A DNA stretch of 24,862 nt from Candidatus Thorarchaeota archaeon (GTDB lineage: Archaea; Asgardarchaeota; Thorarchaeia; Thorarchaeales; Thorarchaeaceae): the NCBI GenBank assembly GCA_048884785.1, contig JBHLQM010000041.1:5779-30640 (forward strand). Direction: 5' to 3'. The notes beneath the pieces are model-generated. The model saw only the letters and a list, made by a program, of their open reading frames with translations, was not told where the DNA came from and ran no database searches. Position numbers and translations under genes: made by a program. Each line of letters begins with the position of its first letter. Positions within the stretch are counted from its first letter, which is position 1. Shown piece after piece: positions 3,104 to 17,915 of this stretch.

Positions 3104-4474
3104 CTATTGACCAACTACCTCCACACCCTGAAATCCCATGGTTGGCATAAACCGAGATCCGTGTACTTCGGGGTCAGACGCGATGAAGACTTCTTCCTTT
3201 AGCGAGTCATAAAGATTGCCAACTAGGAGTGCATACTTGATTTGACCTTTCAGTTCTCCGTTCTTTATTAGTCTTGCATTTCTGATTTCATTTGAAAATG
3301 CGCCCGAAAGGGAATCAACAATAGGATACGCAAAGTGTTCAATATATACGCCCTTGGAAATTTCTGCTATGATTTCCTCAACGGATTTTGACCCTGCTGG
3401 GACTTCAAGAGTAGAATTCCTGCATGACACCATTCCTGTGAATGATCCATGAACATCTCTTACACCTCTACGAAAACCATTGCCTGTTGATTTCAGATTC
3501 ACCTGAGCAGCATTATAACTGTCGAAGAGATATGACTTCAAGACTCCATTCTCCAGCACCTTTGTCTTGGATGTTGGCACACCTTCATCATCCACAAGCG
3601 CACTCATCAATCCCAGCTTTGATTTTCCATTATCGGTTACTGATAGGCTCTCATGCACAACATTTGCCCCTACCTTGTCGGTCCATGGACTTGAGCGATT
3701 GTTAATGTTCTCTGCAGAAGCAGCATCGCCAACTACATCTCCAACCAAAGCACTCGCTTCACTTGATGCAATAACAGCGACTGCATCCTTCATCCCCGAT
3801 TTCAGCGGCTTTGCCGCTATCACATCTAGTGCTTGCTGTCGAAGTTTCTCACCCTTTGCCGCGAAATCAATGTCGCTCAGTCTGCGCGACCAAACTCTCT
3901 GTACTCCTTCTCCTACCTGACTTCCATCATCAGCTTTTGCAGTGAAATAGCCAAATACAGCCGTAGATTTGGAGCCTGCATCAATTCCAAGATTGTTGGC
4001 AACTCGAAATTCAATGGAACTCGCTCTTAGAACGCCATTTGGCACTGTGACTATCTCTGCATTCGCGTTTTGGACTAGCTCCATACATTTGTCAGATAGG
4101 ATGGCACCATCGGCATTTGCGGTATCTTTGTCGAAGAACCTGCTTGCATTGCCAGATGCCTTCTTTGGAGTTGGCAATGAAACGAATTTAGAATCTTCAT
4201 TACTGATTGTTGCCACCGACATCGCACGTCTGACAATATCAAGAGGTTTCTCAGACAAAAGAGTTGAGCTTGTGAATCCAATCTTCTTGCCTAGAATGAA
4301 TTTTAGACCTACACCAAACTCGACTTTCGAGTCACTTATCTTGGGAATATTGTCATCAATGTAGATACTCGATGTTTCGGCTTTGGCCGCAAATACTTCA
4401 ACCTGAGATGCTCCATGCGCTTCAGACTGATTTACCAAAAGGTGGGTGATATCATAAAGATTCACATTACCCAC
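3104..4474 (-). CDS. pmbA: PmbA/TldE-family protein (non-catalytic partner of TldD)
   Basis: DDEGVP..LENGVLKSYLFD..STGNG; lacks HExxxH; overlaps the tldD stop by 8 nt. Confidence 0.9.
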   Translation of the reverse strand: MGNVNLYDITHLLVNQSEAHGASQVEVFAAKAETSSIYIDDNIPKISDSKVEFGVGLKFILGKKIGFTSSTLLSEKPLDIVRRAMSVATISNEDSKFVSLPTPKKASGNASRFFDKDTANADGAILSDKCMELVQNANAEIVTVPNGVLRASSIEFRVANNLGIDAGSKSTAVFGYFTAKADDGSQVGEGVQRVWSRRLSDIDFAAKGEKLRQQALDVIAAKPLKSGMKDAVAVIASSEASALVGDVVGDAASAENINNRSSPWTDKVGANVVHESLSVTDNGKSKLGLMSALVDDEGVPTSKTKVLENGVLKSYLFDSYNAAQVNLKSTGNGFRRGVRDVHGSFTGMVSCRNSTLEVPAGSKSVEEIIAEISKGVYIEHFAYPIVDSLSGAFSNEIRNARLIKNGELKGQIKYALLVGNLYDSLKEEVFIASDPEVHGSRFMPTMGFQGVEVVGQ

Positions 4475-5855
4475 CCCCTACAACAAGCTGCATTCTCATG
4501 TGAGGCCCTCCTGATGTTATCGGGATGTAGTCTTCTTCGCCCTTCCCACATGTTCCGCCTGAAAAATCAAGCTTGTCACCAACTGCATCAACCGTCTTGA
4601 GAATGTCCAAGACTCTGCCAGTTATAGAAAGGCTCCTCACCAGTTGTGATAGTTCACCATTCTTGATTATATAGCCTTTCAAGCTAGTACATTGAACCCC
4701 GCCACCAACAACATCTTCCATGCCTGAGTGAGTCTTTAAAATATAGATGCCATCCCTTGTGTCCTCTATGATTTCTTCGTTTCTCCAATCGCCGGTGTCG
4801 AAGAAAGTATTTGTCATTCGAGCGAATATGCGCCTGTTGTAGTCCTGAGATCTTCCATTTCCAGTTGGTTTTACACCCATAATAGCTGCAGTTTCTAGAG
4901 TCTGCATGTAGCCGCTGAATACACCCCTATCGATAATGGTCGTCCGGGAGGAGGGAGTTCCCTCAGAATCAAAAGGCATACTTCCTCTAAGGCCTGGAAT
5001 GGTTCCATCATCTATCATACTAACGCTCTCGGTTCCAACCTTCACACCAACCATATTTGACAAGAATGAACGGTTTTTGACAACCTCATCAGCCTCGCTG
5101 GCGTGACCACACACCTCATGAGCTATTGTACCTGCGATATTACCATCTACAACTGCTGTTATTTCTCCTGACGGTGGCTTTGCAGCCTTAAGCAAATCAA
5201 GAGCATTCTGCGCACATTCTGAAGCATATTCGTTGGGATTCATTCCTCTAACAAACTCGTATCCAGCAAGAGCATCCTTAACACTGTAGTCATATTGAAT
5301 CTTGAATTCATCTTTGGCAACAGGATTAACAAAAGTGCGTATCCGAATTTCATCCCATTCCAACCTTGTGCCTTCCGAGTTGGCAAGGCGATAGATATCT
5401 TTTCTATCACCATACATTGAATTCCGATTGACAATCTTCTCATCAATAGACTGGGCCTTGTCAAGCTCCAACACAAATTCAAGCTTCTCCTCTTCGGTGA
5501 CTTGCATTGGATCTTCCTTTGTCTTCTGCCATTTGCTTTCTTTGTGAATGGGAAGATCAGAGAGGCTGATTCTTTTTCTGGAATGCTTGGCATTGTACTT
5601 GGCCATCCTTGTTGCTTTTAAAAGAAGATTCTCAAGCGCTCCAAGAGACATAGGCTCGGTAGTCGAGCTTTGTCCCCAGCATTCTCCAACGAGAACACGC
5701 GCCACGGTTCCAGCTTTTGTGGAACGGCTCAATTGTCGAAGGCCGCCATTGACTACAACAATTGATGTTGTTGCTGAGCCTTGATGCCGAATATCCGCGA
5801 ACGATACATCGGGATCACCGATGTTTTCAACCGCCTTACCTATTGTGTCAAGCAT
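4467..5855 (-). CDS. tldD: TldD-family metalloprotease
   Basis: HEVCGHASEAD (HExxxH), FDSEG, TGNGR, RMTNT, C-terminal CGK..GGPH. Confidence 0.93.
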   Translation of the reverse strand: MLDTIGKAVENIGDPDVSFADIRHQGSATTSIVVVNGGLRQLSRSTKAGTVARVLVGECWGQSSTTEPMSLGALENLLLKATRMAKYNAKHSRKRISLSDLPIHKESKWQKTKEDPMQVTEEEKLEFVLELDKAQSIDEKIVNRNSMYGDRKDIYRLANSEGTRLEWDEIRIRTFVNPVAKDEFKIQYDYSVKDALAGYEFVRGMNPNEYASECAQNALDLLKAAKPPSGEITAVVDGNIAGTIAHEVCGHASEADEVVKNRSFLSNMVGVKVGTESVSMIDDGTIPGLRGSMPFDSEGTPSSRTTIIDRGVFSGYMQTLETAAIMGVKPTGNGRSQDYNRRIFARMTNTFFDTGDWRNEEIIEDTRDGIYILKTHSGMEDVVGGGVQCTSLKGYIIKNGELSQLVRSLSITGRVLDILKTVDAVGDKLDFSGGTCGKGEEDYIPITSGGPHMRMQLVVGGG

Positions 5856-5949
5856 ATGTTGTCCCTCTGCTGGGACATGAAACTATACATAAGGGTTTGC
5901 AGCGTCGCAATATGGAAAAGATGAATTGAATACTCTATTTCTCCCTCAA

Positions 5950-6096
5950 AGAGGTGGCGGGTTCGTGGGAAATCGTGGTAGGAGGGGGGAGTTTCGTAAT
6001 TGAGGGCATGTAACGAAAAACTAGCCCACGTACCCGCCTTGAATTATTCCCATGCATCAAGGTAAGTATGTTCCCACACACCTACCTGTTCCTATC
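5950..6096 (-). ncRNA. Candidate structured RNA, element A (unknown family; apparent homolog of 17529-17628)
   Basis: A 12-bp stem with GGGA (GNRA) tetraloop at 6060-6087 pairs fully only on the minus strand (two G-U pairs). A 13/14-bp stem, 5956-5969 with 6025-6038, encloses an inner hairpin and UCCCCCCUCC. TATA-like TTAATAA at 6118-6124. No credible ORF. Confidence 0.6.
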
Positions 6097-6352
6097 ATAG
6101 GTGAAACATTTCCTCTCTTATTAACCTTTACTTTATGGACTGAAGGCAAGATTTAGTTTAATCAAACTTTAATGAAACTTACAATATGTAAAATGTATTC
6201 AATTTGGAATGTTCGAAATGGAATGATATAGTTTTGTGATTATCGAATGTGACGTTTTTTCCTAAATTCTATTAAACTGCTATCATTGCATGTTTTAGAG
6301 AAAATGAAGGATGCAGATGGCCCATTTCTGGACCACCTCATCCGATAGTTCT

Positions 6353-7999
6353 TTACTCACCAACAAATGGCTTAGAGAGACTATCCTCTTCAACCTGATT
6401 TGGCTTGTGCTTACCTCGCCATTGATCAATAGGGACAGCAAACTTGTCTTCCATTCGGGATCGATGAATCGTGTTCATTGTGCAGAATGGAATGATTCGA
6501 CCATCTGGAACAGAGTAATTCACATCGCAATGCTGAATTCTCTCAAGGTCGAAGTTATAGGGATCTTGAAAGTGCATCATCCCGAGCATGATGATTCGTC
6601 GCATGAACTTAGCGAGTGAATCGTAGTCACCTCGGTCAAGGAATGCGCTTAGCAGGTCCTTTAGGATACCTTTCTTCTTGATATGTCGTGCGCCTGCAGC
6701 AAGCTTTGCCTTTGCGCGGGTGCTTGCGGCACGAGCCTCATCTGCATAGAGATTTGCAATTTCCTCTAGAAGTTCCAGAAATGCATCAACATTCAGAATC
6801 TCAGTTATTGGCTTGTAAGAACCATCCTCCTCAATATACAGGAACGTAGACATTCCGCAGGCGAAGTGTGAGCTGAGCTCTAGCTGTGGTCCACCTTTAA
6901 TAAGACCTAATGCACGACCAACAGGCATCATTGAGGGGACAGGATACCAAGCATCAGCAGGGATTATTCCACCAGTCTGTTCCTCAATCATTTTGATTGC
7001 ATCAGGAATTGTGATTCTCATCTGATGCCGGGATTCATGATCAATACGTCCTGTGATGCTAACTGGCTGGAAATTCACACATCGAACAACGTCATGATTC
7101 TTGACGGCAAACTCTACAATCTTGCCAAGCTGGTCACTATTGACCCCTCGAACAACGGTTGGAACTAGAACGATTGATTCCATACCAACCTCTCGAGCGT
7201 TCTGAAGAGCCTGGAGCTTGATTGGCAGAAGATTGGAACCACGGGCTGCGATATATGGCTCTGGAGTCACACCATCAAATTGCATATAGATGGTAGAGAG
7301 ACCTGCATCACGCAGTTCCTGGAGGTACTCTTTGCTCTTGCCAACTCTGATTGCATTGCTCGCTATCTGTACATGTCGGAAACCGAGTTGTTTCGCCCAT
7401 TTTATGTATTGAGGTAAATGCTTACTAACGGTGGGTTCTCCTCCAGCGAATTGGAGTGCCGGAGCCGGAACAGGTCTATTGCTCCTGAGATTCCTCATCA
7501 TCTCAAGTACTTCCTCAGGGGTGGGTTCGTACACTGAACCGCCCTCAGCTGCGACAGCAAAGCAGATTGGACATCGCAGATTGCATCGGTTGGTTACATC
7601 AAGGAGAGCAAGTGCAGTGTGTGACTTGTGTTCAGTGCATGGACCGCAGTCCTCAGGACAGCCCTTCACTCTCTCAGTGCGGGGATTATCGAGTCCAACA
7701 GACTTGTACCACCAAGTCTGGGCTTTCTTGAACATCTCTGCGTCGCCCCAGTAAACATCAACAAATTCACCATGCTTATCGCATGATTTTCTGTACATTA
7801 TCTTCCCGTTGTCTTCATAGACTTCCGCATCAATAACTACAACCTTATCATCTGTCAATAAACATTCAGGGCATATAGATTGGGTTGTATAAGGAAGTGC
7901 CTTTACGGGATACTTTTCAACATGGTACCTTGATAATGGGCCACTGTCTTCGTGAGTTAGTGGAACCTCTGGCACCGGCTTAACTTCATCAGCTGTCAT
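6353..7999 (-). CDS. tes: Tetraether lipid synthase Tes / GDGT-MAS (MJ0619-family radical SAM)
   Basis: N-terminal CPEC..CDKH; CPEDCGPCTEH; radical SAM motif DVTNRCNLRCPICFA; QFAGGEPT; NFQPVS; SHFACG; MHFQDPYNFD..HCDVNY; IIPFCTMN. Collinear with MJ0619 as I recall its sequence. Confidence 0.9.
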   Translation of the reverse strand: MTADEVKPVPEVPLTHEDSGPLSRYHVEKYPVKALPYTTQSICPECLLTDDKVVVIDAEVYEDNGKIMYRKSCDKHGEFVDVYWGDAEMFKKAQTWWYKSVGLDNPRTERVKGCPEDCGPCTEHKSHTALALLDVTNRCNLRCPICFAVAAEGGSVYEPTPEEVLEMMRNLRSNRPVPAPALQFAGGEPTVSKHLPQYIKWAKQLGFRHVQIASNAIRVGKSKEYLQELRDAGLSTIYMQFDGVTPEPYIAARGSNLLPIKLQALQNAREVGMESIVLVPTVVRGVNSDQLGKIVEFAVKNHDVVRCVNFQPVSITGRIDHESRHQMRITIPDAIKMIEEQTGGIIPADAWYPVPSMMPVGRALGLIKGGPQLELSSHFACGMSTFLYIEEDGSYKPITEILNVDAFLELLEEIANLYADEARAASTRAKAKLAAGARHIKKKGILKDLLSAFLDRGDYDSLAKFMRRIIMLGMMHFQDPYNFDLERIQHCDVNYSVPDGRIIPFCTMNTIHRSRMEDKFAVPIDQWRGKHKPNQVEEDSLSKPFVGE

Positions 8000-8008
8000 T
8001 ATCGTTCA

Positions 8009-8046
8009 CTCCATGACCACATGGAACCACCACTGAACAGGGTGGT
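8009..8046 (-). promoter_or_regulatory. tes 5' leader with two hairpins, the second covering the SD
   Basis: ACCACC/GGUGGU (8026-8046) and UUCCAUG-uggu-CAUGGAG (8009-8026). TATA-like TTATATT at ~8074-8080 with an A-rich BRE. Confidence 0.45.
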
Positions 8047-8123
8047 ATATCAGACGTTTGGGAGTTTTCTTTGAATATAACTTTTGTCCGATGTTTCAGA
8101 GTATGAAAAGGGTGTCAAATTGC

Positions 8124-8438
8124 TCATTCACTAGATTGCAGGATATAGCCCTTATCAAAACCCCCACGCGCAAGTTTCTTTGCGTGCCTCTGCATCTCAA
8201 CTAAGCCGTCATCCGCTTTTCGAAATTTCATAAACGCTTCTAGCGTTTCAATGAGGTCTACTACTTCATCCATACTGCCTGTTTCAAGGAGCTCATTTGC
8301 TTCTTCAACAATCTTCGCTCTGAAGAATCTATCAAGTTCCTCCCCTTTTGCAATTCTAACATTTGGTTCCTCACCAGAGGAACGAATAAGGTCTGGAATA
8401 CCATCCCGAACTAGTTTTTCTCGAACCAATGGTATCAC
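8124..8438 (-). CDS. MazG-like / PRA-PH-like nucleoside triphosphate pyrophosphohydrolase
   Basis: KLVRDGIP, KIVEEANE..DEVVDLIE (ExxE..ExxD), KKLARGGFDKG. Confidence 0.85.
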   Translation of the reverse strand: MIPLVREKLVRDGIPDLIRSSGEEPNVRIAKGEELDRFFRAKIVEEANELLETGSMDEVVDLIETLEAFMKFRKADDGLVEMQRHAKKLARGGFDKGYILQSSE

Positions 8439-9110
8439 TCACTCAATGATAAGAGCCACTTCGATTTGGTCTCTTGCGGTTTCAATGAATTGTTGAACGC
8501 CAACTACAAGATCATCAGGAATATTAGTTGTCCATGGCTCTTCGGCATCACGGCTTACAGTTGCGGTCATTTCATTGAATGGAAGGAATTTCGCATCAAA
8601 ATTCACATCAAATGAAACAGTTCCGATCCATTGCCCATCCTTAATCACTTCATACATGGGTTGAAAGCGTTTCATCGTATTTGATGGAATCGCAACCCAG
8701 TAGAAGGACATCCCGTTGAATTGACCAGGTTGTCCTAAGCCAATGACATAACTGTCCATTGTAGCGTTGGCGGTGACAAGGTTATAGAGAATCCCAATAC
8801 GACAATTCAGACACTGATTGAACTCGAGACCGTCTCCACTCTGCTGCACGTATGCTATCCCATTCTTCTCGATGTTATCATCATTACAAAGAAGGCATAG
8901 GTTCATCCCCCATCTCACTTCAATATGGTCTGCAAAGGGACCAGTGAGGAAACGCTCTCTGGCTGCATCAAAGGCGTTCTTAATTGCAGCTGTCCCCTCA
9001 GAAGCCATCCTATCTCGAACACCCCTGAACACAGTAAGGAGGTCCTGTGCCATCACGTTATAAATTATATCAGCGAGATTGTCGAGTGATCGTTCATCCA
9101 GTGTACTCAT
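8439..9110 (-). CDS. Hypothetical protein with two CxxC motifs (putative Zn-binding)
   Basis: 223-aa ORF with SD GGTGA; CLLC and CLNC. Confidence 0.8.
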   Translation of the reverse strand: MSTLDERSLDNLADIIYNVMAQDLLTVFRGVRDRMASEGTAAIKNAFDAARERFLTGPFADHIEVRWGMNLCLLCNDDNIEKNGIAYVQQSGDGLEFNQCLNCRIGILYNLVTANATMDSYVIGLGQPGQFNGMSFYWVAIPSNTMKRFQPMYEVIKDGQWIGTVSFDVNFDAKFLPFNEMTATVSRDAEEPWTTNIPDDLVVGVQQFIETARDQIEVALIIE

Positions 9111-9456
9111 ATTATCACCATCAACAAATCATTTGCCTAGTTCTCTGATTTCAATAGGGAGCAATTAAGTGTTGGTTGGATTTCCTCTCTAATTCAGGTG
9201 GTTAATTTCATTTAGCCCAAGGTTTTTAACCGAGCTATCTCCGAGGTAAAAAGAATTCAATAGGTGAGAAAAGGATGGATTGCCAAATTCACTAACACTC
9301 ATAGTTTGTATTGTAGTCCATTCTCTAGTAGCACACCAGGCAGATTTCTTGAACCACAATCAGAACAATATAAGAGGAAACCATCATGACCTCACCATCT
9401 GATAGTTACGGCTCCTATGCGTCTGAAAACGATATGTATTCTCCAAAGCAAGGTTA

Positions 9457-12400
9457 GTGATTACAATGTTCAAACCGGTATCAAACAAAGTTGACTTCGT
9501 TGCCCAAGAAGAGGAAATCCTCAAGTTCTGGGAAGAAACACAGGCCTTTGAGAAACTTAAGAAGCTTAGAGCCAATGCTCCCAAGTGGTCTTTTCTAGAT
9601 GGCCCCATCACAGCCAACAATCCAATGGGTGTGCACCATGGATGGGGAAGAACATACAAAGATCTTTTCCAGCGTTTCAAAGCTATGCAAGGGTATCGGA
9701 CCCGATATCAAAACGGATATGATTGCCAGGGCCTCTGGGTAGAAGTCAATGTTGAACGAGATATGGGATTCAAGACCAAACGCGATATTGAAGAATATGG
9801 ATTGGAGAAATTCATCATATTATGCAAACAGCGAGTTTTGAAATATGCAGGCGTACAGACAGAACAAAGCATTCGCCTAGGCTATTGGATGAACTGGGAT
9901 GATTTGGACACTCTTTCGTTACTTCATGACGAACTTGGAAGTGATCCTCAAAAGGTCTTAACAATAGACGGAGTGAAAGGCCCAGTGACCGGGACTGTTG
10001 AACAGCTGGTTGGGCGATTGGGAATGCCTGAGCTAGGAGGTTCGTACTATACATTCTCGGAGGAAAACAACTACACCATCTGGTCGGTCTTAAAATCCTG
10101 TCATGATAGAGGTTGGATATACAAAGGAAGAGATGTCATACCGTGGTGTGCAAGATGTGGAACTGGTATCAGTCAACATGAAATAGTGACGGAAGGCTAT
10201 CGTGAGCTAACCCATCCAAGTATCACATTGAGATTCCCCCTGGTAGATCGTCCGGGTGAGAGTATCCTAGTTTGGACGACCACTCCGTGGACTCTCAGCA
10301 GCAATGTTGCAGCCGCTGTAGGTCCAAATCTTGCATATGTCAAGGTTCGTCAAAAAGAGGAAGTATTCTATCTCAGTCGTGGAACGCTGCATATGTTAAA
10401 GGGCGATTACGAAGTCCTAGAAGAGCTGTTAGGCACGGACATGGAGGGATGGATATATCATGGCCCATTTGATGAACTGCCTGCACAGAATGAGGCGGGC
10501 ATTGTTGGAAAGCATAGAGTCATCACTTGGGATGAAGTCGGAGAAGAAGAGGGAACAGGAATAGTTCATGTCGCACCTGGATGCGGTGCGGAAGACTTCC
10601 AACTCTCCAAAGAACACAACCTTGCTGTCATTGCACCTTTAACAGAAGATGGCGTCTTTCTTGAAGGCTTTGATTGGCTATCAGGCATGAATGTGAATGA
10701 TGTAGCTAAACCGATATTTGACAATCTGAAAAAGAAAGGACTGCTATATGCTATAACGAATTATACACACAGGTATCCTGTTTGTTGGCGATGTCAGGAG
10801 GAATTGGTATTCCGGCTTGTGGATGAGTGGTTCATATCAATGGGAGAAAAACTCGACATCCCATATGAAGAGGTGACAGAGGAACAGAAAGAGAGCAACT
10901 TGAGATATCAGATCATGGAAGTTGTCAATAACGAAACAACTTGGTATCCTTCGTTTGGAAAAGAGAGGGAAATGGATTGGCTAAGAAATATGGACGATTG
11001 GATGATCTCCAAGAAACGATATTGGGGTCTAGCATTACCCATCTGGGAATGTGCCGGCTGCAGTCACTTTGAAGTAATTGGAGATAAAGAAGAGCTTAGA
11101 AAACGTGCAGTTGCAGGATGGGATGTATTTGAAGGTCATTCCCCTCATCGACCCTTCATAGATGAAGTCGAAATCAAATGTAGTAATTGCGGTCAACAAA
11201 TGAAACGAATTCCAGATGTAGGGAATCCTTGGCTGGATGCAGGCATAGTAGCAATGAGCACAATGAGCTATAAATCGAACAAAGCGTATTGGAATGAGTG
11301 GTTCCCAGCAGACTTAATCAGCGAAAGCTTTCCTGGTCAATTCAGGAACTGGTTCTATAGTCTCTTGGCAATGAGTACTATTCTCGAGCGAAAGGCACCG
11401 TTCAAAGATGTCTTTACATATGCTACTCTAGTTGCGGAAGATGGAAGACCCATGCACAAATCTTGGGGAAATCTGATAGAGTTTGATGACGCAGCCAAAG
11501 ACGTGGGTGTAGATGTTATGCGGTGGCTTTACTGTGATCACAAACCTGAGAAAGATCTTGCATTTGGATACCACATTGCTGATGATGTGAGAAGACAGTT
11601 TCTGATACCGCTTTGGAATGTGTACTCGTTCTTTGTTACATATGCCAATATGGATGGCTGGAAACCGAAGAAAAACGAAAGAATGTCTCTAAGCCTTTTG
11701 GACAAATGGATTCTTTCCAGACTGAATGAGGTGATCCGAGAGGTCACCAAATATCTGGAAACATATGAACCAAATATGGCAACGGCTACAGTTGATCGCT
11801 TTATAGATCACCTAAGTAACTGGTATCTCAGAAGAAGTCGTCGGCGTTTCTGGGCAGAAGCAGGAGCCAGTGATGAGGTTGATTTAGATAAGAATGCGGC
11901 CTATTATACGCTCTACACTGTCCTAATGAAACTCTCGCAATTGCTTGCACCGTTTGTACCTTTTGTATCTGAGGTAATGCATCAGAATCTCGCCCGCAGT
12001 GTTGATTCCAAGGCCCCGGAGAGTGTCCATCATTGTCCGTGGCCTGAGAGCGATCCAGAATACGTTGATGAAACACTCAATAACGAGATGGATCTGGTTC
12101 TTCGATTGGTTTCCCTAGGCCACGCCGCAAGAAACAACGCAAACATGAAACTTCGTCAGCCATTATCAGATATTGCGTTTGCAGTTGGATTGGATAAAGA
12201 AAAAGATGTAGTCATACGTTATGCGGATATATTGGGCAATGAGCTGAATGTCAAAAATGTACGATTGTTGGATGTCGTTTCTGAAGTGGTCAACTACGAG
12301 CTCAAACCATTACCAAGGCAACTTGGTCAGAAATATGGGTCTCGATTCCCTGCCATTAGAGATGCTATTTTGGGTCTCGACCCACGTGAAGCGTCGAGCC

Positions 12401-12828
12401 GACTACAGGGAGGAGAACCTCTAGAAATAACTGTTAATAGCGAAGCAATCCAAATCCTACCCGATGAAGTTGAGGTGAAAGTCGAGGCACGGAAAGGGTT
12501 TTCGACTGCATCTGAAGGATCATACCTTGCATCATTAACAACTGAGTTGACATCAGACCTTGAATTCGAGGGATTGGCAAGAGATTTCATACGCCGAGTT
12601 CAAGACCTGCGTAAGTCATCTGAACTAAGTGTTAATGATAGAATCCAAGTTCAGTATTCATCCAGCCAGCGTGTTTCTGATGCAGTGGAGTCTCATGAAG
12701 CGTACATTATGGATGAAACCCTTTCAGATATCCTGAAGAAAGCCAAAAAGCCATCAGGAAAATTCAAAGCTGAATATACATTCGGTGATGAAAAACTTGA
12801 GTTGGCAATAACTCCCAGTGAGGTTTAG
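9457..12828 (+). CDS. ileS: Isoleucyl-tRNA synthetase, type 2-like (start GTG 9457 or ATG 9466)
   Basis: DGPITAN, GYDCQGL, WTTTPWTL, GTGIVHVAPG, DWMISKKRYWG, WLDAG, SNWYLRRSRRRFW, C-terminal EGLARDFIRRVQDLRK. Confidence 0.95.
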   Translation: MITMFKPVSNKVDFVAQEEEILKFWEETQAFEKLKKLRANAPKWSFLDGPITANNPMGVHHGWGRTYKDLFQRFKAMQGYRTRYQNGYDCQGLWVEVNVERDMGFKTKRDIEEYGLEKFIILCKQRVLKYAGVQTEQSIRLGYWMNWDDLDTLSLLHDELGSDPQKVLTIDGVKGPVTGTVEQLVGRLGMPELGGSYYTFSEENNYTIWSVLKSCHDRGWIYKGRDVIPWCARCGTGISQHEIVTEGYRELTHPSITLRFPLVDRPGESILVWTTTPWTLSSNVAAAVGPNLAYVKVRQKEEVFYLSRGTLHMLKGDYEVLEELLGTDMEGWIYHGPFDELPAQNEAGIVGKHRVITWDEVGEEEGTGIVHVAPGCGAEDFQLSKEHNLAVIAPLTEDGVFLEGFDWLSGMNVNDVAKPIFDNLKKKGLLYAITNYTHRYPVCWRCQEELVFRLVDEWFISMGEKLDIPYEEVTEEQKESNLRYQIMEVVNNETTWYPSFGKEREMDWLRNMDDWMISKKRYWGLALPIWECAGCSHFEVIGDKEELRKRAVAGWDVFEGHSPHRPFIDEVEIKCSNCGQQMKRIPDVGNPWLDAGIVAMSTMSYKSNKAYWNEWFPADLISESFPGQFRNWFYSLLAMSTILERKAPFKDVFTYATLVAEDGRPMHKSWGNLIEFDDAAKDVGVDVMRWLYCDHKPEKDLAFGYHIADDVRRQFLIPLWNVYSFFVTYANMDGWKPKKNERMSLSLLDKWILSRLNEVIREVTKYLETYEPNMATATVDRFIDHLSNWYLRRSRRRFWAEAGASDEVDLDKNAAYYTLYTVLMKLSQLLAPFVPFVSEVMHQNLARSVDSKAPESVHHCPWPESDPEYVDETLNNEMDLVLRLVSLGHAARNNANMKLRQPLSDIAFAVGLDKEKDVVIRYADILGNELNVKNVRLLDVVSEVVNYELKPLPRQLGQKYGSRFPAIRDAILGLDPREASSRLQGGEPLEITVNSEAIQILPDEVEVKVEARKGFSTASEGSYLASLTTELTSDLEFEGLARDFIRRVQDLRKSSELSVNDRIQVQYSSSQRVSDAVESHEAYIMDETLSDILKKAKKPSGKFKAEYTFGDEKLELAITPSEV

Positions 12829-12859
12829 CATTCCAGCCAAGTGCAAGGTTCATGAGTAG

Positions 12860-14194
12860 TCAAAGCGAACTGGGTTCACGAACTAGCACCTCTAGCAGGG
12901 TGTAGAAGAATTGAGCGTTCTCCTCAATAGATGAGAGTGACACCCATTCATTTGGTCCATGGAGATTATCACCTCTAGGACCAAAGTCAAAAACCTCTGC
13001 TCCATGGCTGGCAAAGTAACGGGAATCTGATGCGCCATACCCCTCAGTCAGTCTGTATGAGATGCCCTGTTTCTTTAGTGCCCATTCAGCGGCTCGTATC
13101 AGCTTTGAGTTAGGATCAGAATTGACATATCCAATTCCATTAGATACCTTGAGAGAGAATACATCCAACCTATCCCTCAGAACATCCGTGAAAGAGGATT
13201 CTATAGCTTCACCGTTGTTTGTCATGGCACGGATATCAAAGTATAGATTCCAAAGATCAGAATCCAAGGACAGAAGGTTTGGAGAAATTGTCGTCCCAAG
13301 ATCAGAATAGTCAGTTGGAAACGATGCTGCTGAAAGGGGAAGAAGCAAGCGAAGGATGTTGGTGAGGGCTTCATCGTACTCTGTTTCAGCGCCAGTCTTG
13401 TCAGGATGAACAACATCTAGCTCAACCCATGCAGGAATTACATTGCTTTTGACAAACCCTCCGCGAATGTCTTTCACCTGTGTGTATCTGTTTAAATCTA
13501 GGAACTTGGATGCGGTCAATAGTGCATGTCTATCAACTCCAGGCCGCTGATAGGCTGAATGGCGAGACTCACTTCCGAAGATGTCAGTTTTGAAATGAAC
13601 CGTTTCCATGCGGCCCTTCATGGTTCGAATCTTCTGTCTTGCCTTGATGGTTGTTGGGAGAGCATTTCGTCTTCGATGGATGATAACTTGGTTGATTCCA
13701 TCCGCGATCAGAACATAGTTAGGAAACAACCCATTCTTCTGCAAATGTTCACGAAGTGCCAGAGCCCCGTTACCTCCACCTATTTCTTCGTCACCAGAAG
13801 CCGCCAGCATTACCGTGCATGGTAGCTCTCCCTCGTTGAACATCTCAGCAAGTTTCAGTATGGAAACAATGTTTCCCTTATTATCACAGGATCCCCGGCC
13901 GAAAGCCTTGTCACCCTCTACATTTAGTTTGAATGGATCGCTTTTCCAATCTTCTCCGGGAGGGACAACATCATAATGAGCTAGAAAGAGAATCTTGAAT
14001 GAACCATGACCTTTCCTACCAAGGGATGTATAGTATCCATTCGATTCGACCATATCAGTTATGAAACCGAAACTTTCAAGTTTCGAGTTTACGTATTCAG
14101 CACATTTTGAGTCGGGCTGAATATTTTTCTGAGGGTCATTGACGGTATTCATTGACACCAAGATACCGAGCTCTTTGGCGATGTCAATTTTCAT
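12860..14194 (-). CDS. M20/DapE-ArgE family metallopeptidase/deacylase
   Basis: AHYDVVP, GRGSCDNKG, DEEIGG, GASDSRYF, HGPNE. Confidence 0.92.
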   Translation of the reverse strand: MKIDIAKELGILVSMNTVNDPQKNIQPDSKCAEYVNSKLESFGFITDMVESNGYYTSLGRKGHGSFKILFLAHYDVVPPGEDWKSDPFKLNVEGDKAFGRGSCDNKGNIVSILKLAEMFNEGELPCTVMLAASGDEEIGGGNGALALREHLQKNGLFPNYVLIADGINQVIIHRRRNALPTTIKARQKIRTMKGRMETVHFKTDIFGSESRHSAYQRPGVDRHALLTASKFLDLNRYTQVKDIRGGFVKSNVIPAWVELDVVHPDKTGAETEYDEALTNILRLLLPLSAASFPTDYSDLGTTISPNLLSLDSDLWNLYFDIRAMTNNGEAIESSFTDVLRDRLDVFSLKVSNGIGYVNSDPNSKLIRAAEWALKKQGISYRLTEGYGASDSRYFASHGAEVFDFGPRGDNLHGPNEWVSLSSIEENAQFFYTLLEVLVREPSSL

Positions 14195-14243
14195 TTTCAG
14201 TCAATTATAGGGAATAGATTTCACTAGAAATAGGTTGTTACCA

Positions 14244-14280
14244 AGAAAAATAAGGAAAGAGGACGCTGGATGCGTCACTC
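14244..14280 (-). terminator. Hairpin plus U-tract after the EF-2 paralog
   Basis: Minus strand GAG(t)GACGC-atcca-GCGTC-CTC, followed by tttccttattttt. Confidence 0.6.
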
Positions 14281-14294
14281 TATCAGTCTTGAGA

Positions 14295-16508
14295 CTAGGT
14301 ACGTTTGTAAACCCAGCGACTCCATGAACCGGTATTCGGGAGTTCAGCTGGCATTCCCTTTCGCGCACGAATCTCAAGAATTTTCTCTTCTTGCATGTTG
14401 TTTGGCAGCTGTTCAAAGCCTCTAAACTGGTATCCAAAGAAACTTCGACCTGCAGTTGCACTTCGAAACTCATCAGCGATGCCAATTGTTTCAGCTGTTG
14501 GTAGTGTTCCCTTTATGGTTACAGTGTCTTCCTCAGCTTCAATAGTCAGAATCTGACCTCTGTGACCAGTTAGAACTTTGATTACACCACCTTGTGTATC
14601 AGGGGGTGTTTTGATATCAGCATTGAGAATGGGTTCAAAGAGGGCAGGTTCAGCTGTTAGAAAACTCATGTTTAGACCTGAGCTAGTCATTGTTGCAACT
14701 TCATTGAATCCAGTGTGAGCAGGGTCTGTGTGTATTGTTGCATCAGTCAGTGTAATCTTGACACCCATCACAGGTTCATGAGCAATTGGTCCCTCATCTA
14801 TGAATTCTCTCCAAGTCGATTGGACATATGGCCAGATTCTCTCGAATTTCTGAACTCCACTCATACCATCGATTAGCATCGATCCTTCATAGATATCGAG
14901 AATCTTCCTTGCATCTTTTGCATCCCAACCAGCCTCATCACGGAGGATTGCAGCCCTCTCACGGTCGTTTTGATCAGCTGTGACCTTTCTCTTCTTGATG
15001 AGCTCAACAGTCTTATCGTCTAAAGGCTCTATGAACATCCTAATACGGTTGTGGCCATTGGGACTCTTTGTGTGGAACTCCATTCCTCGTCCAGCAATCT
15101 TCTCACGGTAGACAATGATAGGTTCTGATATGTGAATCTTAACTTGCTCATTGATACGCTTTGTGAGAATCTCAATCTGAAGTGGATCGATTCCATTTAA
15201 ACGATACTCACCGGATTCTTTGTCATGGATAAAACTTGCCGTAGGATCAGCCATAATCCACTTGGACACCACATCACCAAGCTTTGCGATATCTTGTGGA
15301 TCAACTGGTCGAATGCTTCTGCTTACTACTGGTTCACTCGCATACTCAATGGGTTCGAAGCCCACCATATCAGAGTTGGCTGCCACAAAGGACTCACCAG
15401 AAGGACAAATGAAACCAAAGACTGAGAAGAGATTGCCAGCGGGAACTTCATCCATTGGGAGAATATCTGTAATCTCCTGAACTCCTAGGCGCTTTATAGG
15501 AACGTTCTGCCTCATGTTAACCAGCCTAATGGTCTGACCAGACTTTACCGTTCCAGAGAATACACGGCCGATTAGTGTGGGCCTCTTGCTCTTCGGATCA
15601 ACAAAGATCTTTGTAATCATGCCAATTAATGGTCCATTTGGATCGCACTCAAGTAGTGCCTTCCCTTCAACGCTGTTTAAATCGCCCTTCCAGATTCTGG
15701 GTATCTTGTATTTTTGCGCCTCCTTTGGATTCGGTAGGTGCTTCACTATCATCTCAAGAAGAGCATCATCTAGAGGGAGATTATCTCGCAGCCATCGCTC
15801 ATCGCCTTTTTCATATTTTTCGAAAACGACAATTGGCTTGATTCCCTTCTTTTCAAGGGTCTTCATAGTGAATGCCCAGCCTGTCTTGGCACTACCAATT
15901 GCGACACTTCCATTCTGGAAGTTGACCAGCCAAGATTTGCCATGCTCTGGGGGAGCTATCTTCCTAATGAGTTCATTCACCTTGGCGATGATAATATCAA
16001 TTCTCTCGTATACTTTTGCCGGAGGCAATTTCAACTCGTTAATGAGCCGGTCTACCTTATTGATGAATAAGACAGGCTTGCATGCCTCTCCACCAACCGC
16101 GAGACGGATATTGGTTTCAGTCTGAGTCATTACGCCCTCAAGGGCATCAACAAGGATGACAGCACCATCACTGGCACGAAGTGCTCGGGAAACCTCACCT
16201 GTGAAGGAAAGGTGTCCAGGTGTATCAGAAAGCTGAACTAGGTACTCTTCGCCTTCAATTTCGAAGTTTAGCAGAACTACTGAAGTGAAGATAGTAATAC
16301 CTCTCTCCTGCTCCTCTTCATCGCTATCAGTCATAAGCGCTTGACCAGCAGCTGCATCACTCATTAGACCTGCACGACGCATCAGGTAGTCTGAAGTCGT
16401 TGTCTTACCATGATCTATGTGAGCGCTGATGCTAATGATTCTTTTATGCTCATAATCATCAGACATAATGAGCCTCTTGATTGCATCGGGGTCTTTGATT
16501 TTGACCAT
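14295..16508 (-). CDS. Translation elongation factor 2 homolog, probably the divergent paralog aEF-2p (ATG 16508; alternative GTG 16517)
   Basis: AHIDHGKTT, ERGITI, DTPGH, NKVD, KSPNGHNR, EPIL..AETIG..FRSATAGR; the diphthamide loop reads IHTDPAHTG. Confidence 0.9.
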   Translation of the reverse strand: MVKIKDPDAIKRLIMSDDYEHKRIISISAHIDHGKTTTSDYLMRRAGLMSDAAAGQALMTDSDEEEQERGITIFTSVVLLNFEIEGEEYLVQLSDTPGHLSFTGEVSRALRASDGAVILVDALEGVMTQTETNIRLAVGGEACKPVLFINKVDRLINELKLPPAKVYERIDIIIAKVNELIRKIAPPEHGKSWLVNFQNGSVAIGSAKTGWAFTMKTLEKKGIKPIVVFEKYEKGDERWLRDNLPLDDALLEMIVKHLPNPKEAQKYKIPRIWKGDLNSVEGKALLECDPNGPLIGMITKIFVDPKSKRPTLIGRVFSGTVKSGQTIRLVNMRQNVPIKRLGVQEITDILPMDEVPAGNLFSVFGFICPSGESFVAANSDMVGFEPIEYASEPVVSRSIRPVDPQDIAKLGDVVSKWIMADPTASFIHDKESGEYRLNGIDPLQIEILTKRINEQVKIHISEPIIVYREKIAGRGMEFHTKSPNGHNRIRMFIEPLDDKTVELIKKRKVTADQNDRERAAILRDEAGWDAKDARKILDIYEGSMLIDGMSGVQKFERIWPYVQSTWREFIDEGPIAHEPVMGVKITLTDATIHTDPAHTGFNEVATMTSSGLNMSFLTAEPALFEPILNADIKTPPDTQGGVIKVLTGHRGQILTIEAEEDTVTIKGTLPTAETIGIADEFRSATAGRSFFGYQFRGFEQLPNNMQEEKILEIRARKGMPAELPNTGSWSRWVYKRT

Positions 16509-16553
16509 TCTTATCACACTCGATTTTGAAATTATTATTACTTATCTATCCCC

Positions 16554-16627
16554 AACTTGTCAAGTTAACACGAGAGAACTCGGTCGGGGTCACCGATAGC
16601 CTCACCGGTGGCTTGGCCGACTGCTCC
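16554..16627 (-). promoter_or_regulatory. GC-rich nested stem-loop and palindrome upstream of the EF-2 paralog
   Basis: Minus strand GGAGC/GUUCU, GUCGG/CCGAC and CACCGGU/AUCGGUG (G-U pairs favour the minus strand); palindrome AACTTG-T-CAAGTT at 16554-16566. Confidence 0.5.
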
Positions 16628-16659
16628 ACTTGAAGTTTAAAAGATTTATGTCATGGGAA

Positions 16660-17454
16660 TTATTTTGTGGCAACCACAACCATTCTCTCAGAGCTCGCCG
16701 CATAGGGTCTTCTGGGGAGCTTATTTTCTCCAAACAAGTCGATTTTGCTAAAGCCTACGGATTCTAGCATGTCTTGAATCTCAAGAGCAGTATACATCCG
16801 AATATCATTGTTCGATAACGCATCTTGATTCATCAAAACAATCCTATTTTTCTCGACATCAATGTAGGTTGCCGGTCGGCCTCGTAGAACTCCCGATGGT
16901 GCATCGAGAAAATGAGGTTCACTTAGGAGATATCCTCCATCAATCTCAGACCAGGTTCGCAAAAACTTTGGAATGTTATATGGATTCATCAGATCAAGAA
17001 GAAGTCGTCCGCGATCGATTAACGCATTATAGGAACCCTCTAACACTCGGGCATTTTCTTCATGGTCGAAGAATCCGAAACTATGACTGAGTAGTACGGC
17101 TCCATTGAATCTTTGGACAAAGTTGATTTCTCTCATATCTCCACGATAGAAATTAACTTCAACTCCAGATTCCCTCGCAAGGTCTTCTGCAGAGCGGATC
17201 ATGGATTTTGAGATGTCAAAACCAGATACTGATAAACCTCGTTTGGCGAACAAAACACTATGGTCACCTGCACCGCAGGCAATGTCAAGGATTTCACCTC
17301 CCTTTTTGAGCCCGAGCACTTCAATACTGAAATCCACTATAGACTTGTCATAGTGTTGAATTCCCGGAATTGAACGCCTGTATTTGACTCGAAACATTTC
17401 TGCCCAGAAATCGTCCCAGCCCAGCTCAACTCTTTCCATAAGACACACTTCCAT
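16660..17454 (-). CDS. Class I SAM-dependent methyltransferase (start ATG 17454 or 17439; ORF-track extension to 17598 unlikely)
   Basis: ILDIACGAG, GFDIS..M, GDMRE, SFGFF, GRLLLD. Confidence 0.9.
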   Translation of the reverse strand: MEVCLMERVELGWDDFWAEMFRVKYRRSIPGIQHYDKSIVDFSIEVLGLKKGGEILDIACGAGDHSVLFAKRGLSVSGFDISKSMIRSAEDLARESGVEVNFYRGDMREINFVQRFNGAVLLSHSFGFFDHEENARVLEGSYNALIDRGRLLLDLMNPYNIPKFLRTWSEIDGGYLLSEPHFLDAPSGVLRGRPATYIDVEKNRIVLMNQDALSNNDIRMYTALEIQDMLESVGFSKIDLFGENKLPRRPYAASSERMVVVATK

Positions 17455-17528
17455 AGATTTCCTTCCTCGGGCGAGATATGAAGGTTGTCCTAGTATAGAA
17501 AAGGCAGTCATAAAACAGATTTGACGGG

Positions 17529-17628
17529 GTGGACAGGACCCGCGTCCTGTTGATCGCCGCCGGGAGGGGGACGCAGACAAAAGCAACAGGAGCTTCATAT
17601 AAGCATCAAGCTACGGGTCACCTGTCAC
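17529..17628 (-). ncRNA. Candidate structured RNA, element B (three-way junction; apparent homolog of 5950-6096)
   Basis: Closing stem GACAGG(ug)ACCCGU / GCGGGU-CCUGUC; hairpin AGCUUGAUG-cuua-UAUGAAGCU; 8-bp stem UCCUGUUG/CAACAGGA enclosing a loop with UCCCCCUCC. TATA TTTATA at 17653-17658, about 25 nt upstream of the first paired base. Confidence 0.65.
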
Positions 17629-17680
17629 ACTCATAATTGAGTAGGGATGGCCTATAAATGTATAGTTAACAGTCAAAATG

Positions 17681-17805: not shown

Positions 17806-17915
17806 TGGTAGCCCCGCCAGGACTCGAACCTGGGTCCAGCGGGTATTCCGCCACAGAGCTCGCGAAGCTATATGGCTCCAGAACCGCTGATGATGGACCG
17901 CTACACCACGGGGCT
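17806..17915 (-). tRNA. tRNA-Gln(CUG) with a 34-nt intron at 37/38 (intron 17844-17877) and encoded CCA
   Basis: Acceptor AGCCCCG/CGGGGCT with A1-U72; anticodon stem AGCGG/CCGCT; anticodon CTG at 17879-17881; T arm CCAGG-TTCGAGT-CCTGG. Strict bulge-helix-bulge: TTCT/GGAA helix with 3-nt bulges GG|A and TA|C. The spliced length is 76 nt. Confidence 0.97.

Follow-up and report, generated by a model that had tools for sequence, protein, structure and literature searches.

The 24,862-nucleotide (nt) stretch of Candidatus Thorarchaeota DNA analysed here (contig JBHLQM010000041.1 of assembly GCA_048884785.1, positions 5,779 to 30,640; hereafter the window) carries two intergenic elements, which we denote A and B. 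The source genome is a metagenome-assembled genome whose EF-2 neighbours likewise point to Thorarchaeota. Element A lies on the minus strand at about 6094-5948, in the gap between the gene for the tetraether lipid synthase Tes, a radical S-adenosylmethionine (SAM) protein (6353-7999, minus strand; 629 bits with NCBIfam model NF045702, whose cut-off is 450), and the TldD/PmbA gene pair (3104-5855). Element B, also on the minus strand, is found at about 17630-17512, with ≈11.5 kb between it and the syntenic copy of A, and is followed by the gene for a class I SAM-dependent methyltransferase (16660-17439, minus strand; Pfam Methyltransf_25/11). Both elements are genuine, conserved small RNA genes of the minus strand. 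They represent two new RNA families, absent from Rfam and conserved across the class Thorarchaeia, which would be of a known functional kind and for which we infer a mechanism below. We found no paper on either RNA, nor any describing small regulatory RNAs from the Asgard archaea, which are the prokaryotes most closely related to eukaryotes.

The A gene has a TATA-like box, TTAATAAG (6117-6124, minus strand), and a block, AAAGGTTAATAAG, that is kept in the syntenic orthologues. The transcript would begin with a variable 5' leader (6041-6094, minus strand, with the start placed from the TATA spacing), comprising a CAGGUAGGUGUG/CAUACUUACCUG-like hairpin and a G-rich box, GGUAGGUGUGUGGG. Leaders are up to ≈65 nt long and differ in sequence among orthologues. 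The leader is followed by the conserved core of the family (5949-6040, minus strand), in which a closing stem, P1+P2 (6038-6025 with 5969-5956), encloses an inner hairpin, P3, and a large conserved loop. P3 (5992-6018, minus strand) pairs UUUCGU with ACGAAA and has a loop containing AUGCCCUCA, the first of two CCCUC motifs, the bases of which show no or almost no variation among 38 copies. The second CCCUC motif resides in a C-rich tract, CUCCCCCCUCCUACCAC (5975-5991, minus strand), which contains CCUCCU, shows conservation of 90% or more across the same 38 copies, and is unpaired in both the minimum free energy fold and the consensus fold. In the loops, AUGCCCUCA and AAACUCCCCCCUCCUACCA are either invariant or conserved to 90% or more, and the near-invariant part of the core amounts to ≈55 nt, enclosed by the 14-bp closing stem. 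The RNA probably ends in a short 3' tail, ACCUCUUU (5948-5955, minus strand), consisting of ACCY (seen after P1 in 34 of the 37 copies) and a U or pyrimidine run (a T or pyrimidine run being present in 24 of 37). The TATA-like boxes of A (6124-6117) and B (TTTATA, 17658-17653) are both located ≈25-30 nt 5' of the first structured bases. Reading by eye, we found a TATA-like box 24-95 nt 5' of P1 in about 32 of 37 A copies (25 in the narrower window used by the script).

An earlier note on this DNA, made from the sequence alone, had described the two elements as structured RNAs of the minus strand, each with a promoter-like box and a common series of motifs. Every one of its motif coordinates was confirmed, including ACAGGU (6089-6084), CUUGAUGC (6061-6054), U5 (6020-6016), UCCCCCCUCC (5990-5981), CGAU (5975-5972) and CCACC (5957-5953) in A, and CUUGAUGC (17610-17603), a stem (17591-17584 with 17552-17545), the C-rich motif (17571-17563) and CCACC (17532-17528) in B. 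The description of both as structured elements of the minus strand, each with its own promoter-like box, also held up. Both RNAs folded better than shuffled sequence (z = -2.6 for A and -3.0 for B). The minus strand was assigned to A because of its many G-U pairs and because of the scores of the covariance model of the A family, R1, on the two strands: 118 bits on the minus strand versus 15 bits on the plus strand. The match of R1 to element A (118.5 bits, E = 8e-36) encompasses the closing stem, the P3 hairpin, the AUGCCCUCA loop and the CUCCCCCCUCCUACCA tract, all of which are present. In an alignment of 38 diverse copies (alignment A2), compensatory double changes were observed in 12 of the 13 counted pairs of the closing stem, and 91.6% of the cells were paired. 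The closing-stem score was matched by none of 500 shuffles and by no slid register. In P3, 92% of the cells pair, with almost no variation.

The source genome contains four copies of A, with R1 scores of 118, 72, 57 and 39 bits; the three paralogues, on contigs C20, C117 and C55, were located by BLAST within the genome. The suggestion in the earlier note of a multi-copy RNA is correct for A; B is present in a single copy. (A marginal fifth R1 match in the same genome, at G000:C24:7726-7806 on the minus strand, scored 18 bits, E = 0.36.) A BLAST search of A against 40 relatives gave 1-17 matches in every one of the 24 genomes of the same family, and R1 matched 86 of the 87 Thorarchaeia genomes with 1-13 copies apiece, the sole miss being a genome that is 52% complete. 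All 33 genomes of families f1 and f2 were matched by R1, compared with four marginal matches (24-26 bits) among 117 other Asgard genomes. In every genome, the strongest match stands in a syntenic position, with Tes upstream in 18 of 20 loci (the window's own counted) and TldD downstream in eight of the 20. Three blocks can be distinguished at the syntenic loci: the conserved promoter-like block AAAGGTTAATAAG, the variable leader, and ≈92 nt of RNA with a nucleotide identity of 88-98%, whereas the adjacent Tes protein is only 76-88% identical. The paralogues have ordinary neighbours (a methyltransferase, a BNR-repeat protein, OsmC and an amino-acid kinase), and no mobile-element genes (transposase, integrase or reverse transcriptase) were seen beside them. 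The possibility raised earlier that A is a leader of tldD-pmbA was abandoned in view of the low frequency of TldD downstream and of the unrelated genes that the paralogues precede.

The copies of A differ in setting and length. Many are situated at contig ends (e.g., G085:C6:5-96, G006:C395:1-86, G066:C224:1-90 and G068:C13:1-68), and some occur in close pairs (G017:C26 at 68230 and 68558; G008:C73 at 9600 and 11624). Probably, the near-identical A core has broken the assemblies. Several copies are ≈30-55 nt longer than the R1 model (L119, at G013:C1:130628-130749; G096:C166:1392-1536; G050:C5:4250-4370), and in L119 the insert consists of an extra 30 nt within the C-rich tract, between CUCCC and CCCUCC. 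Just 5' of the TATA-like box, the orthologous paralogues L113 and L126 carry UGAGGGC, which is the P3-loop core GCCCUCA in reverse complement.

Element B is an RNA of ≈115 nt (17522-17633, minus strand), preceded by a TATA box (17653-17658, minus strand) that lies inside ACATTTATAGG. All but one of 40 B loci have a ATTTATAGG-like box, located 85-95 nt 5' of the C-rich loop in 35 of the 39. The outer stem of B, formed by GUGACAGG..GACCCG with CGGGUC..CCUGUC, surrounds a variable hairpin (17612-17591) and a stem (17591-17584 with 17552-17545). The outer stem reads GUGACAGG/CCUGUC in the source genus and GGAGA/UCUCC elsewhere, with GACCCGY/RCGGGUC added in both cases; of the inner parts, the hairpin varies in sequence and the stem reads CCUGUUG/CAACAGG. 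The C-rich motif of B forms an apical loop, CCCCCUCCCG (17561-17570, minus strand; other genera have CCCUCCCG). It caps a short stem that is nested inside CCUGUUG/CAACAGG and includes a conserved purine-purine mismatch. The loop shows CCCUCCC, and CCCUCCCGGCGG is invariant in an alignment of 17 sequences. At the 3' end, CCACC and a downstream T-run (17512-17532, minus strand; CCAC(C)UUUUU in many orthologues) constitute a probable, possibly leaky, terminator. A run of four or more T residues was found no more than 50 nt away in 24 of 40 loci, and was weak or missing in the other 16.

The covariance model of the B family, R2, scored 102 bits on element B (E = 9e-31). B was found once by BLAST in 17 of the 24 same-family genomes, and R2 located it in 77 of the 87 genomes of the class, almost always as a single copy (two genomes had two matches). 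The search for homologues and covariation that the earlier note had proposed was thus rewarded with homologues of both RNAs, in 86 (A) and 77 (B) of 87 genomes, and with strong covariation in A, while that in B was modest. Ten pairs with double changes, and 92.9% of cells paired, were counted in a model-fitted realignment of B; the raw MAFFT alignment gave no significant signal. The fold of B is consequently less firm than that of A, since its covariation was seen only after a realignment that leans towards structure. At one locus in the same genus (L105, G006:C106:8275-8521), an A-family copy stands convergent to B in place of the 3' part of B, which is cut off after GGCGGCG and scores only 35 bits.

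An open reading frame (ORF) of 312 amino acids (16660-17598) extends from the methyltransferase gene 53 codons too far, across B, and its 5' end is spurious. The start of the gene is at 17439 (or at an in-frame ATG at 17454), and B is intergenic because the alignments of the orthologous proteins reach back to the ATG at 17439, with tblastn matches beginning at residue 1 in 30 of 30 loci. The methyltransferase matched no specific family in NCBIfam. A conserved 15-nt motif, GACAAGCTTCWTATC, was observed between B and the gene (window ≈17473-17487, minus strand; loci L144-L173), at a fixed distance of 67-70 nt 5' of the methyltransferase coding motif GGCTGGGA, or about -48 from the ATG; between the motif and B, the distance ranges from 29 to 139 nt. 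This motif may be the gene's own promoter or operator. On the other side of B, at 17809-17915 (minus strand), there is a tRNA gene with an intron (41 bits with the Rfam tRNA model, E = 3e-7), in which ≈37 nt are inserted after the anticodon loop. Its anticodon was tentatively read as CUG (Gln), and CCA is apparently encoded; the gene was missed by ARAGORN and by the Rfam scan at gathering threshold.

The earlier note had presented A and B as homologous members of a single dispersed RNA family, but this homology is not supported, and they are two separate families. With filters off and E ≤ 10, R1 reported nothing at 17522-17633 (B) and R2 reported nothing at 5949-6040 (A). The Smith-Waterman score between A and B was 17, compared with 15.0 ± 2.2 for dinucleotide shuffles, 198 of 1000 of which reached 17, and random genomic pieces gave scores like that of A and B as well. 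The best local match coincides with the CUUGAUGC region, where most A orthologues have AAACAUGGG and where the B orthologues vary, too. Both CUUGAUGC and ACAGGU vary within the genus and the family in the A and B alignments, ACAGGU being specific to the genus, and conservation in both families is restricted to CCCUCC and CCAC(C). The topologies also differ: the C-rich tract of A occupies the 3' side of an internal loop and adjoins a hairpin, while the C-rich motif of B is an apical loop whose stem shares the outer helix with a second hairpin in a three-way arrangement. Descent from one dispersed family would account for the common layout (a promoter, a 5' hairpin, a stem around a U-rich and then a C-rich segment, CCACC, and a U-run) and for the shared 6-mer CCCUCC. 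Set against the failed cross-searches, a similarity at shuffle level, the lack of conserved CUUGAUGC and ACAGGU, the different topologies and the contrast between a multi-copy and a single-copy element, such descent is very unlikely. The true overlap between A and B is function-like, i.e., an unpaired, conserved CCCUC(C), and an end formed by CCAC(C) and then a U-run. Pairing between the two RNAs was rejected, as the duplex energy was no better than with shuffled B (90/200).

The earlier note had been unable to assign the elements to an RNA family, and the Rfam searches bear this out. At gathering thresholds, Rfam 15 gave no matches in the window. At E ≤ 10, matches to A were at chance level (the best scoring 17 bits against thresholds of 50-92), and B matched nothing except for the neighbouring tRNA. 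Individual classes were considered and rejected. A box C/D sRNA, defined by conserved C (RUGAUGA) and D (CUGA) boxes, was dismissed because the UGAUGC of A and B is unconserved in orthologues and neither element has a small nucleolar RNA match. For an H/ACA sRNA, whose lower stem is followed by an ACA box and whose upper stem holds a kink-turn or kink-loop, we noted ACC after the stem in most copies, no GA/AG kink-turn signature in P3, and a 'pocket' with a 3' side of 22 nt. The 7-bp stem followed by ACC in A might indicate a tRNA-like RNA, or a split or intron-containing tRNA; neither a T-arm nor a D-arm is present, and A matched no tRNA in ARAGORN or Rfam. A selenocysteine insertion sequence or another element of the Tes 3' untranslated region was discarded in view of the conserved TATA box that A has of its own and of the unrelated genes that the paralogues follow, and an omega-RNA, bridge RNA or other mobile-element RNA in view of the absence of transposase-like neighbours. 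Orthologue indels break every frame of a small ORF in the A core.

We tentatively favour the interpretation that A and B are independent C-rich small RNAs, specific to Thorarchaeia, that would pair with purine-rich sequences resembling the Shine-Dalgarno (SD) site (with a probability of roughly 0.45). The most enriched hexamers in the source genome, at -10 to -13, spell the SD consensus GGAGGUGAU, and GGAGG is enriched ≈20-fold and GAGGG ≈10-fold near -12. With this consensus, the CCCUC and CCUCC motifs and the CACCUC tail of A are complementary to typical ribosome-binding sites. A conserved, unpaired CCUCC or CCCUC motif of this kind is present in both A and B, in agreement with what had been pointed out before. 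In A, the variable leader comes before the constant ≈92-nt domain, in which the covarying 14-bp stem presents a near-invariant loop with the two CCCUC motifs, and a CACCUC-type tail comes last; B displays CCCUCCC in its apical hairpin loop. The C-rich motifs could then act as seeds that pair with SD-like GAGGG or GGAGG stretches in mRNA, and this pairing might block or modulate translation initiation.

In the Tes-linked copies of A, the G-rich box of the leader may pair with the C-rich tract, and so mask the tract or mimic a target. In 14 of 19 such copies, the pairing between the box (here GGUAGGUGUGUGGG) and the tract had an energy of -13 to -20 kcal/mol (z from -1.0 to -2.8). It was weak in five Tes-linked copies and missing in most paralogues, several of which have leader complements to the P3 loop. 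The mean was -10.8 kcal/mol, compared with -5.9 kcal/mol for a control region (Wilcoxon p = 0.001), a difference that was driven by the syntenic copies and in which independence is overstated, since the copies are related. The calculated energies suggest self-masking or target mimicry.

Several observations weigh against pairing with SD sites. Duplex energies with 2640 putative start regions were indistinguishable from those of shuffled seeds or of internal gene windows, and no extended complement to the C-rich tract was found in the genome; a search for the 17-nt complement with up to three mismatches returned three of the four A-family genes and one site with three mismatches. Since the leader can occupy the C-rich tract, the tract may not be free. 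The 16S rRNA gene (G000:C29:35826-37319) ends at a contig end without its last ≈15 nt, and the anti-SD sequence was therefore assumed from the SD consensus. The invariance of ≈55 nt across the class, exceeding what a short seed needs, suggests a protein or ribosome as the partner. We considered the possibility that the RNAs, and A above all, bind a protein or the ribosome as a scaffold, a sponge or a mimic of the 16S 3' end, with the invariant loop as the binding surface. The conservation of the loop beside a more variable Tes protein, the target scans without signal, and the closing stem around a large pyrimidine-rich loop, which recalls Y RNAs, would all fit. This reading nevertheless seems rather unlikely: no candidate for a partner protein was found, Ro60/TROVE (PF05731) is absent from the 91%-complete genome, there is no match to the Rfam Y_RNA family (a Y RNA proper was rejected on these two grounds), and the complementarity of the A loop to the available 16S sequence, from which the 3' end is missing, was no better than that of shuffled loops (63/200).

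The invariable linkage of B to one gene is a further difficulty for a freely acting RNA. In 30 of 30 loci, the same methyltransferase follows B directly and in the same orientation, whereas the other flank of B varies, and a role in cis is possible for this reason; for A, there is no such constant, co-oriented downstream gene. As a 5' leader of the riboswitch or attenuator type, B would allow a ligand or factor to choose between termination at a weak T-run and read-through, consistent with the high proportion of loci with weak or missing T-runs and with the highly conserved 31-nt core flanked by helices on both sides. We regard this as a serious, if on balance improbable, alternative. The length of the spacer separating B from the gene ranges from 29 to 139 nt, GACAAGCTTCWTATC at its fixed distance looks like the gene's own control region, no Rfam riboswitch matches, and the C-rich loop shows no obvious pairing with the gene's GGUGAG-type SD in the alignment. 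Moreover, the whole 11.5-kb region is syntenic throughout the class, making linkage alone weak evidence. A further reading is conceivable, though quite unlikely: A, present in multiple copies throughout the class, would mimic the 16S 3' end (with CCUCCU in its loop and CACCUC at its own end), be masked by an SD-like leader, and act as a global, switchable regulator of translation or as a ribosome-directed RNA unique to Thorarchaeia, and B would be a new riboswitch-like leader of a SAM-methyltransferase in Asgard archaea. The copy number of A, its tandem pairs, its frequent location at contig ends and its substitution for part of B in one related genome might also be read as signs of a repeat, a mobile-element RNA or a self-cleaving ribozyme spreading through genomes. 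We consider this highly implausible, as no transposase, integrase or reverse transcriptase genes accompany the paralogues, most copies have a TATA-like box of their own, the synteny of the main copy holds throughout the class, and no ribozyme family was matched.

The R1 and R2 models allow the two families to be annotated in metagenomes and metatranscriptomes, whichever interpretation applies. If the invariant core of A binds a protein or the ribosome instead of SD sites, it would mark a hitherto unknown ribonucleoprotein. In its architecture, A resembles Y RNAs and the bacterial YrlA in having a closing stem around a large pyrimidine-rich loop and a U-rich 3' end, but it has an additional 5' leader outside the stem, and the genome lacks a Ro/TROVE gene. 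B shares with riboswitches and attenuators a conserved structure, an upstream promoter, a downstream U-run and an invariant downstream gene, but differs from them in matching no known aptamer, in its variable spacer and in the separate motif close to the gene. The closest parallels to SD-directed pairing are RsaE/RoxS of Firmicutes and the LhrC siblings, stand-alone small RNAs with several UCCC- or CCCC-type motifs, in loops and single strands, that are complementary to SD regions. LhrC is also like the A family in having sibling copies. Unlike these RNAs, A and B have archaeal hosts and no Rfam match to either, and the A core greatly exceeds the length and the invariance that a seed would require. 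Among archaea, sRNA154 (through its anti-ribosome-binding-site loop 2) and sRNA41 of Methanosarcina mazei are intergenic small RNAs that have been proposed to mask the ribosome-binding sites of their targets (PMC5867862). They belong to another phylum and have experimental targets, whereas A and B are known from their sequences. Should A and B act on SD sites in the manner proposed here, the C-rich, anti-SD riboregulation of Firmicutes and Methanosarcina would extend to the Asgard archaea.

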